Origin: an uncultured Clostridium sp.
Lineage (GTDB): Bacteria; Bacillota; Clostridia; TANB77; CAG-508
Length of the DNA: 64,000 bases
Direction of reading: 5' to 3'
Assembly: GCA_948467875.1 (NCBI GenBank)
Contig: CAOKFZ010000002.1
Coordinates: 78,180-142,179, forward strand
Positions 15,456 through 16,251 of this stretch are shown here, piece by piece. Both the position numbers and the translations under genes were made by a program. Within the stretch, counting starts at the first letter, position 1, and every line of letters begins with the position of its first letter. The notes under the pieces are model-generated. The model made no database searches. It was not told where the DNA came from and saw only the letters and a program-made list of their open reading frames with translations.

Positions 15456-15490
15456 GATTTTGTAAATAAACTATGTTATAATGAATATAA
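15456..15490 (+). promoter_or_regulatory. Sigma-70-like promoter (TTGATT, 17 nt, TATAAT) driving the repeat RNA
   Basis: -35 TTGATT at 15456, a 17-nt spacer, then -10 TATAAT. Confidence 0.45.
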
Positions 15491-15520
15491 TAAAATTGCT
15501 AAAAGAATTTATCATAAAAA

Positions 15521-15680
15521 TTAGGTTATCACAAACCTTTGAATTATTTCATAAAGTGAATTTTAGGTTAGATATGAGCCTTTAGGAGAAAATCCTATTA
15601 ACGAATATCCAACAGAACATTAGGTTAGAAACGAGCCTTTAGAAAAATTCTATAAATGAGTTTCCAGAAAAATTATGGGG
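15521..15680 (+). ncRNA. ToxI-like antitoxin RNA: about 3 imperfect tandem direct repeats (43-60 nt), each starting TTAGGTTA
   Basis: Repeat units start at 15521, 15564 and 15620. Units 2 and 3 are about 75% identical (TTAGGTTAGAnAnGAGCCTTTAG...). The array lies directly upstream of a ToxN-family gene, with an intervening terminator. Confidence 0.55.
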
Positions 15681-15706
15681 GATACGAAAAAGTATTCCCT
15701 TTTTTG
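15672..15706 (+). terminator. Intrinsic terminator between the repeat array and toxN (type III TA architecture)
   Basis: GGGGATAC-GAAAAA-GTATTCCC hairpin followed by TTTTTTG. Confidence 0.5.
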
Positions 15707-15720
15707 TGTATGGAGGAAAA

Positions 15721-16251
15721 ATGAAAAATAACAAAAAATTAAAATTAGAAAAATTGAATTTTTTTGTAATAGATACTAAGTATATAAATTTTTTAAGTCA
15801 ATTTGATAGTCATGTTGCTTATAATAAAGATGAGACAAGACCTTATATAGGTATCGTATTAAGAATAGAAAAACATTGTTATTTTGCGCCTTTATTTTCT
15901 CCGAAATCAAAGCATAAAACATATAAAAATAATTTATCTTTTTTCAAGATTGTAAGTAAAAAATCGAAGAATAGCTTAGGAATTATAAGATTTTCTAATA
16001 TGATACCAGTACCAGAAGATAGTATGTATTTGTTAGAGTTAGAAGATAAAAGTTATGGATATAAAAGATTACTTTCAGAACAATATTCTTACATAAATAT
16101 TCCAGAAAATAGACAAAAAATTAAAGACAAAGCAGAGAAGATTTATGCTATTGTTACAAGTAAGAGCAAGAGTAGAATGAGTCAATTTTATAAATCTTTG
16201 AGCTGTGATTTTAAGCGATTAGAAGAAAAATGTCTAAATTTTCAAAAATAA
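15721..16251 (+). CDS. toxN: Type III toxin-antitoxin endoribonuclease toxin, ToxN/AbiQ family
   Basis: The protein aligns to ToxN along its length: NFFVIDTKYINFLSQFD; PYIGIVLRIEKHCYFAPLFSPKSKH; FFKI; LGIIRFSNMIPV; YKRLL; CDFKRLEEK. RBS GGAGGA. Confidence 0.8.
   Translation: MKNNKKLKLEKLNFFVIDTKYINFLSQFDSHVAYNKDETRPYIGIVLRIEKHCYFAPLFSPKSKHKTYKNNLSFFKIVSKKSKNSLGIIRFSNMIPVPEDSMYLLELEDKSYGYKRLLSEQYSYINIPENRQKIKDKAEKIYAIVTSKSKSRMSQFYKSLSCDFKRLEEKCLNFQK

Follow-up and report, generated by a model that had tools for sequence, protein, structure and literature searches.

What does the ~220-nt non-coding region between a promoter and a toxN gene on the chromosome of an uncultured Clostridium encode, and how does its RNA relate to the antitoxins of known type III systems? 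To answer this, we analysed a stretch of 64,000 nucleotides, referred to here as the window, together with related loci from other genomes. The locus is very probably a chromosomal type III toxin-antitoxin cassette of the toxIN family, with RNA units that appear to be ancient paralogues. This kind of system is already known; what is new is the array of three unlike, separately conserved units, each a predicted pseudoknot.

Operon layout and the toxin

The cassette spans positions 15454-16251 of the window on the + strand, in the order promoter, three imperfect direct repeats, terminator and toxN, and the non-coding region is closed by the terminator hairpin (Table 1). Four operon criteria have been described for type III loci, among them a promoter (i), a terminator (iii) and a start codon with a toxin ORF (iv) (PMC8860590), and all four (4/4) are found at this locus. 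For the first, -35 and -10 elements lie upstream of the repeats. In a consensus scan of 15200-16500 this site is the best promoter on the + strand, with 10 of 12 consensus positions and an additional TG. For the third and fourth, the terminator is followed by GGAGG, the ATG at 15721 and the ORF. The terminator stem-loop (15677-15700) reads GGGGGATAC-GAAAAA-GTATTCCCT, followed by T6, and is the sole terminator-like site in 15200-16500, where 0.3 are expected. A preliminary description of this DNA had proposed a consensus TTGATT-17-TATAAT promoter, and a hairpin with a T6 tract before toxN. Both were recovered, and its other elements are likewise present at or near the positions it had given them.

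The operon layout is preserved in ~50 loci. Identical -35 and -10 elements are kept in ~50 related loci, and the terminator stem is preserved among the relatives through one-sided and two-sided changes, with an interrupted U-tract (UAUAUUUGU) in most relatives compared with T6 in the window. The leader is 90% identical over 48 loci. Its palindrome has the family consensus TTGATAAA-N4-TTTATCAA, and the copy in the window, TTGCTAAA-AGAA-TTTATCAT (15496-15515), contains two mismatches. Across the loci the leader helix is 97.5% paired with zero compensatory changes, so an RNA hairpin and a DNA operator are indistinguishable in this case.

In different lineages the cassette sits at different sites of the core chromosome, and so it moves as a unit. 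Vertical inheritance was sought through conserved synteny; among the relatives, the neighbourhood of the window is shared only by the loci L001 and L057. The 369-aa protein encoded upstream has no match in Pfam, PADLOC or NCBIfam.

Table 1. Features of the cassette, in positions of the window.
Feature	Position	Strand	Details
Promoter, sigma-70-type	15454..15482	+	-35 TTGATT 15454-15459; 17-nt spacer; extended -10 TGtTATAAT 15474-15482 (TATAAT 15477-15482)
Antitoxin transcript 5' leader	15483..15520	+	palindrome/hairpin, degenerate copy
R1, 42 nt (predicted pseudoknot)	15522..15563	+	stem A AGGUU 15523-15527/AACCU 15534-15538; hairpin B UGAA 15540-15543/UUCA 15548-15551; pseudoknot UCAC 15529-15532/GUGA 15556-15559
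R2, 57 nt (predicted pseudoknot)	15564..15620	+	stem A 15565-15569/15577-15581; pseudoknot GAUAU 15571-15575/AUAUC 15605-15609; hairpin B UAGGA 15583-15587/UCCUA 15593-15597
R3, ~56 nt (predicted pseudoknot)	15621..15676	+	stem A 15622-15626/15634-15638; pseudoknot GAAAC 15628-15632/GUUUC 15660-15664; hairpin B UAGAA 15640-15644/UUCUA 15648-15652
Intrinsic terminator between antitoxin and toxin	15677..15706	+	9-bp stem (4 GC pairs), 6-nt loop, T6
Ribosome-binding site GGAGG	15712..15716	+	4 nt 5' of ATG 15721; same position in relatives
toxN, predicted ToxN/AbiQ-family endoribonuclease, 176 aa	15721..16251 (stop included)	+	Pfam, PADLOC, fold

The gene had been described as a 181-aa ToxN, and the family assignment stands. 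A profile search, proposed as a check in the preliminary description, gives the Pfam family ToxN_toxin (PF13958) as the only Pfam match of the product, at 6.4e-42 and 143.9 bits (cutoff 25), over profile positions 2-158 of 159. The AbiQ model of PADLOC matches at 6.7e-47, and phmmer aligns the product to the ToxN of PDB 4ATO at 7.5e-27. The length has to be revised, since the GTG at 15706, with which the 181-aa reading begins, falls within the T-tract of the terminator. The most likely start is the ATG at 15721, yielding a protein of 176 aa, because it is preceded by GGAGG and most homologues have this length.

According to the AlphaFold2 model (pLDDT 82.8, pTM 0.80), the protein is predicted to adopt the ToxN fold, with a twisted antiparallel beta core and a long C-terminal helical region. 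The best Foldseek match is 4ATO (TM 0.81/0.84), followed by 7D8O, 2XD0 and 4GLK, and the top four have TM-scores of 0.76-0.84. The CptN structure 4RMO is matched weakly (TM 0.58, E 7e-3, 14% identity), and the toxin lies outside the CptN family.

The active site of ToxN_Pa consists of Tyr29, Lys33, Thr52, Ser53 and Lys55 (PMC5086642). Residues S60 and K62 of the toxin in the window align with Ser53 and Lys55 and are both invariant in the subfamily. Lys33 corresponds to R40, Thr52 to F59, and Tyr29 falls in an indel; out of the five residues, only Ser and Lys are clearly conserved, as Ser-x-Lys. The phenylalanine at the Thr52 position raised the question of an inactive toxin. This was set aside, since AbiQ, which is active, has a Leu at that position in a direct alignment to 4GLK, and S60 lines up with the essential Ser. 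A Lactococcus plasmid toxin (L079) was considered as AbiQ and rejected, as it has no match to 4GLK at E 1e-10 or better.

Three unlike repeat units upstream of toxN

The motif TTAGGTTA occurs at 15521, 15563 and 15620, three of only four copies in the 64-kb window, where ~2.35 are expected on both strands. A covariance model of the unit, whose training alignment includes the units of the window itself, finds exactly three units (15522-15563, 15564-15620 and 15621-15675) with E values of 2.5e-5 for R1, 6.6e-11 for R2 and 1.4e-12 for R3, and no other significant match in the window. Three head-to-tail units were also recovered by a repeat search of the window. The motif positions and the unit model agree with the earlier proposal of about three imperfect direct repeats. 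The units are 42, 57 and ~56 nt long (the family median is 52 nt), and they are 57%, 60% and 75% identical within the array; the mean within-array identity over the loci is 64-70%, compared with 82-90% conservation for each unit at its own position in different loci. Near-identical repeats, a reported trait of toxI and cptI and not a formal criterion, are absent here.

Each unit is a predicted H-type pseudoknot with single-stranded tails on its flanks. It is formed by stem A (5 bp), the inserted hairpin B and a helix of 4-5 bp that pairs the loop of stem A with downstream sequence. R2 is followed by the junction ...GAACAU/UAGG, and the A-rich 3' tail of R3, GAAAAAUUAU, looks like an inter-unit junction. 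R1 owes its length of 42 nt to a clade-specific deletion of ~10 nt, common to L001 and L057, which removes the 3' tail and with it the AAACAU junction usually found there. Lacking the tail of R1 and the R1/R2 junction, and with a degenerate leader palindrome, the array of the window may be partly decaying in its clade.

A search of 15300-16400 against Rfam 15 with E values up to 10 gave chance-level matches only: the terminator accounts for one to sraA at E 3.7, and the other is to a Na+ riboswitch at E 1.8 on the opposite strand. The minimum free energy (MFE) fold of the whole RNA single strand is uninformative (z = -1.75), and MFE cannot represent pseudoknots.

Comparison between loci is more informative about the structure. 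In 51 loci 97.8% of the cells in the array structure are paired, versus 31-53% with the partners slid, and for 57 units the values are 93.2% versus 27-52%. Over the 51 loci, 13 pairs show double changes; shuffling gives 4.6, and the observed count was attained in 0 of 500 shuffles. Among the 57 units, compensatory changes are seen in four of the five pairs of the pseudoknot helix and in four of the five pairs of hairpin B. Common descent accounts for part of these counts, and the sequences are the same ones that yielded the structure. The R1 pseudoknot exists in ~12 variants with the pairing always kept (for example GCAC/GUGC, ACAC/GUGU, GUAC/GUAC, UCAC/GUGA, AAGC/GCUU and CAUAAA/UUUAUG), and hairpin B of R2 covaries, with GC replaced by AU in 17 of the 51 loci. 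The preliminary description had recommended modelling the repeats as pseudoknots, and covariation backs a pseudoknot in each unit.

The cores of R2 and R3 are 97.9% and 99.6% identical across the loci, compared with 81% for the toxN coding sequence. Each of the 153 units is most closely related to a unit that occupies its own array position in a different locus (153/153). The pseudoknot helices differ and are mutually non-complementary (R1 GCAC/GUGC or variants, R2 GAUAU/AUAUC, R3 GAAAC/GUUUC). Judged from these comparisons, R1, R2 and R3 are ancient paralogues, each apparently maintained by selection. In this subfamily their number is fixed at three.

The identity of each unit to its counterparts across loci is 79-82% for R1 and ~90% for R2 and R3. 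Given this faster evolution, the true antitoxins could be only one or two of the units (R2, R3), with R1 a structural or regulatory spacer that does not bind ToxN; the tail deletion tolerated in the clade of the window and the lowest unit-model score of the three would fit such a role. We consider it unlikely, however, as many compensatory changes in R1 have left the same set of three helices in place, R1 precedes every intact toxN, and its loss is seen only alongside decay or loss of toxN (L066, the L093 group and L123).

Detection, spread and loss of the cassette

Tandem Repeats Finder (TRF) is the tool by which type III surveys define the antitoxin (PMC8860590, PMC12283969). In the window TRF reports no array at a score of at least 30, and among 57 related arrays it detects 0/57 with default and 2/57 with lenient settings. 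As the arrays escape this criterion, the ToxN genes of the subfamily would look like orphan toxins. The unit covariance model recovers the arrays cleanly where TRF misses them. The subfamily extends over at least 75 species-level gut Clostridia genomes, with 263 protein clusters at 90% identity.

The length of the repeats had been taken as a sign of a distinct subfamily. This argument is weak, because 42-57 nt falls inside the 31-62 nt published for toxIN repeats (Blower 2012, Table 2), a range that includes toxIN loci with repeats of 57-62 nt. A distinct subfamily is nevertheless supported by sequence comparison, since the identity of its ToxN to any plasmid or phage ToxN is 39% at most and the plasmid arrays are not recognised by the unit model. 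Applied to the arrays of four plasmid toxN loci, the model matched none of them; they are the ToxI of E. coli and the arrays that precede toxN homologues of B. thuringiensis, C. botulinum and L. lactis.

Toxin and array were compared for the 87 intact toxN genes whose available upstream sequence is 260 nt or longer. Three model-detected units lie upstream of 86 of them and the last one has a visibly degenerate third unit; none (0/87) is without an array. Arrays of zero to two units are found only where toxN is absent or degenerate. By contrast, toxN is missing in 22 of 67 array-selected metagenome loci, and complete arrays with promoter and terminator are present where toxN is deleted (L113, L134, L135, L144 and L153). 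A toxin that never occurs without the array, together with an array that often occurs without the toxin, fits an antitoxin, and this asymmetry represents natural genetic evidence for antitoxin function in uncultured organisms. The preliminary description had named orthologous loci that retain the gene and lack the repeats as an observation that would count against its proposal; the repeats are kept in related loci. Its claim of a canonical type III layout is in agreement with the family, the fold, the four operon criteria, the conservation of the repeats and the covariation. A scan of viral contigs for the invariant unit core gave 0 matches, with no sign of phage-borne mimics.

The toxin-less arrays also bear on the question whether the upstream RNA is a cis-acting leader, attenuator or riboswitch-like, that controls toxN transcription via the terminator with no trans-acting antitoxin. 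The position of the RNA directly 5' of the gene, its end in a terminator and the high conservation of leader and cores are what such an element would show, and the unit model recognises no known ToxI array. However, full arrays outlast the deletion of toxN in the loci listed above, which would be pointless for a purely cis element. Further, a threefold pseudoknot module is a hallmark of type III antitoxins and not of known leaders, no cis-regulatory family of Rfam matches, and no alternative antiterminator pairing is apparent in the MFE fold of 15489-15706. A cis-acting leader is extremely improbable.

In L057, which has the same synteny as the window, toxN is truncated after ~121 aa. Since toxin-less arrays are common, and the window has an R1 short by ~10 nt including the AAACAU junction as well as the two mismatches in the leader palindrome, its locus could be a decaying, non-functional remnant heading to the toxin-less state. 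We find this quite improbable: the toxN of the window has its full length and none of the family-invariant residues is lost, the identical protein is found on 16 contigs, and R2, R3, promoter, terminator and ribosome-binding site are intact. Even in the short R1, stem A and hairpin B persist, as does a compensated pseudoknot (UCAC/GUGA), which suggests continued selection.

Proposed mechanism and comparison with known systems

As a type III system, the cassette would work as follows. Read-through of the terminator would make toxN mRNA scarcer than the antitoxin RNA. ToxN would cleave the precursor in the A-rich junctions, where AA[C/A] precedes AUUAGG. It would then hold on to the single-stranded pseudoknot tails and be kept inactive within a closed ring of RNA and protein. 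If the antitoxin supply fails, for example upon phage infection, free ToxN would cut cellular and phage RNA and growth would stop.

Solved ToxIN complexes have a 3:3 stoichiometry, in line with the fixed number of three units; this makes the idea of a heteromeric ring directly testable. It is possible, though doubtful, that the antitoxin is an obligate heterotrimer, with R1, R2 and R3 each on a defined edge of one ToxN3 triangle. If this is true, one transcript would yield one closed complex, and within the precursor the units would be kept from mispairing by pseudoknot helices that do not complement one another. In contrast to ToxI, no unit could replace another, and one type of unit alone would fail to neutralise the toxin. 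The frequent toxin-less arrays would then provide resident immunity of an anti-addiction kind against incoming cassettes.

Among known systems, ToxIN_Bt (B. thuringiensis pAW63, 4ATO) has the closest solved toxin, with 34% identity in addition to the phmmer and Foldseek matches given above. It shares the operon logic, ~3 repeats and a Firmicute host, and its A-rich cleavage sites, AAA/AA (PMC8860590), are like the R3 tail GAAAAAU of the window. The one B. thuringiensis array in the comparison comes from a different plasmid, NZ_CP097259, and has 34-nt repeats with a TRF score of 113 and no unit-model match. The units of the window, by contrast, are 42-57 nt long with an inserted hairpin, share 57-75% identity and escape TRF.

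ToxIN_Pa and ToxIN_Ec (Pectobacterium pECA1039 and E. coli plasmids; 2XD0, 7D8O) have the same toxin family, fold and four-part operon, and the ToxI antitoxin is an H-type pseudoknot (PMC5086642), as predicted for the units of the window. Crystal structures of ToxI show a triplex core. The 5' half of the ToxI unit, AGGUGAUUUGCUACCUUUAAG, resembles AGGUUAGAUAUGAGCCUUUAG of the window, and the ToxI junction ...AA/AUUCAGG parallels ...AAC AUUAGG; this likeness of the RNAs is a visual resemblance. ToxI consists of 4.6-5.6 nearly identical 36-nt repeats (96% matches in the E. coli array), each a sufficient antitoxin, while the window has three non-identical units with fixed order and number, and a toxin with ~33-39% identity.

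AbiQ/antiQ of Lactococcus lactis (4GLK) belongs to the same family, as the PADLOC match indicates, and has a similar fold (TM 0.78) at 28% identity. The residue before the catalytic Ser is hydrophobic in both, Leu in AbiQ and Phe in the toxin of the window. AntiQ lies on a plasmid and contains ~2.8 repeats, each of 35 nt, and an Abi function has been demonstrated for AbiQ. CptIN (Eubacterium rectale, 4RMO) is likewise a chromosomal type III system from gut Clostridia, and its repeats too are longer (40-48 nt). It differs in its 2:2 heterotetramer, in the type of pseudoknot and in its distantly related toxin.

The repeats of tenpI are longer, with up to 35% variation, are hard to detect for TRF, and are each able to form a pseudoknot; the same study (PMC12283969, 2025) reports toxI and cptI repeats as nearly identical and asks whether all the non-identical tenpI repeats function. 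Compared with this report, the locus in the window extends non-identical repeats to the toxIN family. The tenpIN systems differ in their toxin family, TenpN and not PF13958, and usually have two repeats. Beyond what is available for tenpIN, covariation and presence/absence here point to the upkeep of each unit. For a toxIN clade this would provide a comparative answer to the question, with all three units apparently under purifying selection and compensatory change.

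Organisation of the locus and its toxin

The promoter, tandem repeats, terminator and toxN proposed in the preliminary description were all found on the + strand of the window within 15454-16251. Besides this terminator, 15200-16500 has no terminator-like site (shuffles expect 0.3), and three of the four copies of TTAGGTTA in the 64 kb lie within 107 nt at the array.

Features of the cassette and of the genes upstream of it, in window positions
Feature	Position	Strand	Details
369-aa protein gene	13788-14897		P-loop-like GSPGSGKK motif
NUDIX hydrolase gene	14897-15436		start overlaps stop of 369-aa gene (ATGA)
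Promoter	15454-15482	+	TTGATT, 17 nt, TATAAT with TG extended -10; sequence scan
Leader	between promoter and first repeat	+	38 nt
Leader palindrome	15496-15515		just 3' of the -10
Three head-to-tail repeat units	15521, 15563, 15620	+	each starting (U)UAGGUUA
Terminator	15677-15706	+	9-bp GC-rich hairpin, then T6
Ribosome-binding site	15712-16	+	GGAGG
toxN ORF	ATG 15721, end 16251	+	176 aa

The protein had been described as a ToxN/AbiQ family member of 181 aa. The family assignment holds; the length does not, as its GTG start lies inside the terminator T-tract. We prefer the ATG, 4 nt past GGAGG, whose product has the length of most homologues. This product matches essentially the whole Pfam ToxN_toxin profile (PF13958, 6.4e-42), as anticipated, and the PADLOC AbiQ model (6.7e-47). 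Its sequence matches the solved structures of B. thuringiensis ToxN (4ATO, 7.5e-27), E. coli 7D8O, P. atrosepticum 2XD0 and AbiQ 4GLK, and the same four are the best Foldseek matches of its AlphaFold2 model (mean pLDDT 82.8; TM 0.76-0.84), with CptN much more distant (TM 0.58). The ToxN_Pa active site consists of Tyr29, Lys33, Thr52, Ser53 and Lys55 (review PMC5086642). S60 and K62 of the window protein align with Ser53 and Lys55, and both are invariant in the subfamily. The Thr52 position is occupied by Phe; a putative inactivation on this account was set aside because AbiQ has Leu there.

The leader palindrome (family consensus TTGATAAA-N4-TTTATCAA) is 90% conserved in the family without compensatory changes, is degenerate in the window, and may represent either a hairpin at the RNA 5' end or a DNA operator. 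The window's clean T6 contrasts with most relatives, in which the U-tract after the terminator hairpin is interrupted (CCCCUAUAUUUGUAA; alignment A2 columns 223-273); this suggests lineage-specific read-through and hence differing toxin-to-antitoxin ratios. The sole Tandem Repeats Finder (TRF) match near the locus, a 17-nt A-rich repeat of 2.2 copies at 15717-15753, was rejected as an RNA repeat: it encodes the N-terminus of toxN, which is rich in lysine (MKNNKKLKLEKL). On several contigs with an identical toxin, the public gene calls include a 34-aa ORF within the array (L086 5761-5865, ~window 15481-15585); it is almost certainly spurious.

Structure and divergence of the three units

A genome scan found 75 related loci, all in MAGs of uncultured gut Clostridia. 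The entire upstream region (promoter, leader, three units, terminator, RBS) can be aligned across them, and the repeats are conserved in these related loci; their absence from orthologous loci that retain the gene had been named as a refutation. According to this alignment, stem A of each unit pairs AGGUU with RRCCU and is followed by UUU, the variable hairpin B, AUAAAC(G/A)A and a segment complementary to the stem A loop. The resulting pseudoknot helix differs between the first, second and third unit (R1, R2, R3): GCAC/GUGC in R1, for which about a dozen compensated variants occur (UCAC/GUGA in the window), GAUAU/AUAUC in R2 and GAAAC/GUUUC in R3.

In a 51-locus alignment 97.8% of the cells are paired, compared with 31-53% when the partners are slid, and among 57 individual units 93.2%, compared with 27-52%, the structure being derived from these same sequences. 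Both-side changes occur at 13 pairs in the 51 loci against 4.6 in shuffles (0/500 as high), a type of control that kinship inflates. Compensatory changes occur at 4/5 pairs of the pseudoknot helix and at 4/5 of hairpin B in the 57 units. The control with slid partners and the large number of independent variants of R1 are stronger evidence for RNA structure than the shuffles. Pseudoknot modelling had been proposed for the repeats, and the pair counts support an H-type pseudoknot with an inserted hairpin in each unit, as far as sequence can tell.

Within the window the units are 57% (R1/R2), 60% (R1/R3) and 75% (R2/R3) identical, and across the family the mean identity between units of one array is 64-70%. 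Like-position units of different loci are 82-90% identical, and the nearest neighbour of every unit (153/153) sits at the like position in another locus. Across loci that share just 81% identity in the toxN coding sequence, identity in the 21-nt cores of R2 and R3 reaches 98-99.6%. Given this position-specific pattern and the core conservation, R1, R2 and R3 are ancient paralogues, each under its own purifying selection and without concerted evolution. A covariance model of the unit, trained on an alignment that includes the window's own units, matches exactly three units in the 64 kb, all in the cassette, and 64 of the 68 genome loci with any match have three. The fixed trio could simply reflect divergence between units suppressing repeat expansion or contraction; a defined heterotrimer of the three unlike units around three ToxN molecules is speculative.

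Toxin, array and genomic site across loci

We cross-tabulated toxN integrity against unit count at 142 loci. Every intact toxN gene with sufficient upstream sequence (87 genes) has an array; the model detects three units at 86 of them, and two at L058, where a degenerate third can be made out by inspection. At loci with 0-2 units toxN is absent, truncated or frameshifted (L059, truncated at 111 aa; L065; L066). A metagenome scan seeded solely with the invariant unit core gave 67 stretches, 22 of which lack toxN, a few being limited by contig ends. Toxin-less L113, L134, L135, L144 and L153 retain promoter, R1-R2-R3 and terminator in full, and their toxN is deleted or down to a few codons; others have R2 and R3 only, or a single R3-like unit. 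The toxin never occurs without the array and the array often without the toxin, as expected if tolerating the toxin requires the RNA; this asymmetry argues against the array RNA being a purely cis-acting leader.

Toxin-less metagenome loci also include L093/L118/L125/L127 and L092, L096, L123, L151 and L156 (range L090-L156). Several toxin-less arrays adjoin a cotJC (Mn-catalase) fragment, the rny-cotJ site occupied in another lineage.

The window cassette is flanked by the NUDIX hydrolase gene and LL-diaminopimelate aminotransferase, a neighbourhood common only to its two closest relatives, L001 and L057; in another lineage the cassette lies between rny and cotJABC. Since insertion sites differ between lineages, it is a small mobile unit at differing core-chromosome sites, outside prophage or plasmid. 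The unit core was absent from the viral contig collection searched. The 369-aa protein has no Pfam, PADLOC or NCBIfam match, and its gene and the NUDIX gene adjoin the cassette as a pair in L001 and L057 too. On an identical-toxin contig, a gene of the RhuM family (PF13310; L086 921-1967) precedes the cassette by a few kb and lies upstream of the cmk gene of the window; RhuM-like genes often accompany mobile elements.

The window's R1 is 42 nt long, with ~10 nt of 3' tail gone, including the near-invariant AAACAU junction; the short R1 and imperfect leader palindrome are common to the window, L001 and L057. In L057 (3001-3363) toxN breaks off after about residue 121, with the aminotransferase gene directly next and the three-unit array and promoter kept, which resembles the beginning of toxin loss within the window's clade. 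These shared traits would fit a decaying window copy; however, toxN, R2, R3, the promoter and the terminator of this copy are intact and R1 retains all three helices, which makes decay very improbable, and we judge the locus functional from its sequence.

Proposed mode of action and comparison with known antitoxins

Beyond the operon layout, toxin family and fold, covariation-supported pseudoknot units, per-unit selection and presence/absence asymmetry established here, the cassette would, on architectural grounds, work like ToxI. Following established ToxIN biology (PMC8860590, PMC5086642), the terminator would yield antitoxin excess, ToxN would cut the precursor at unit junctions and form a closed, inactive ring with the antitoxin RNA, and phage infection would set ToxN free. 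ToxN enzymes cleave at the A-rich sites AA↓AU, GAA↓AU and AAA↓AA (PMC8860590). The junction ...AAC AUUAGG resembles AA↓AUUCAGG of ToxI, and the unit 5' half (AGGUUAGAUAUGAGCCUUUAG) is like the E. coli / P. atrosepticum ToxI repeat (AGGUGAUUUGCUACCUUUAAG). The unit model scores none of four plasmid toxN arrays tested, and an Rfam search of the cassette RNA gave no family match; RNA homology to ToxI is therefore plausible but unproven.

Repeat length had been taken to indicate a distinct subfamily. Units of 42-59 nt fall within the published toxIN span of 31-62 nt (1.9 to 5.6 copies; Blower 2012, Table 2), and the length argument is weak; ToxN proteins of plasmid/phage records, at <=39% identity, and the unscored plasmid arrays still speak for such a subfamily. 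Published type III surveys depend on TRF (PMC8860590, PMC12283969), which detects 0/57 of these arrays at default and 2/57 at lenient settings; it easily detects the arrays that precede ToxN homologues in E. coli, B. thuringiensis, C. botulinum and L. lactis. The E. coli ToxI array has 4.6 copies of 36 nt with 96% matches by TRF, whereas the window units are 57-75% alike.

The kind of system is already known, and so is the toxin family: public annotation labels close relatives 'type III toxin-antitoxin system ToxN/AbiQ family toxin'. For tenpIN, non-identical repeats were published in 2025 and set against 'nearly identical' toxI and cptI repeats (PMC12283969). The novelty lies in a widespread clade of the toxIN family whose three diverged pseudoknot units, bearing an inserted hairpin, are fixed in number and order; for this clade there is also evidence that every unit is maintained, and orphan arrays are frequent.
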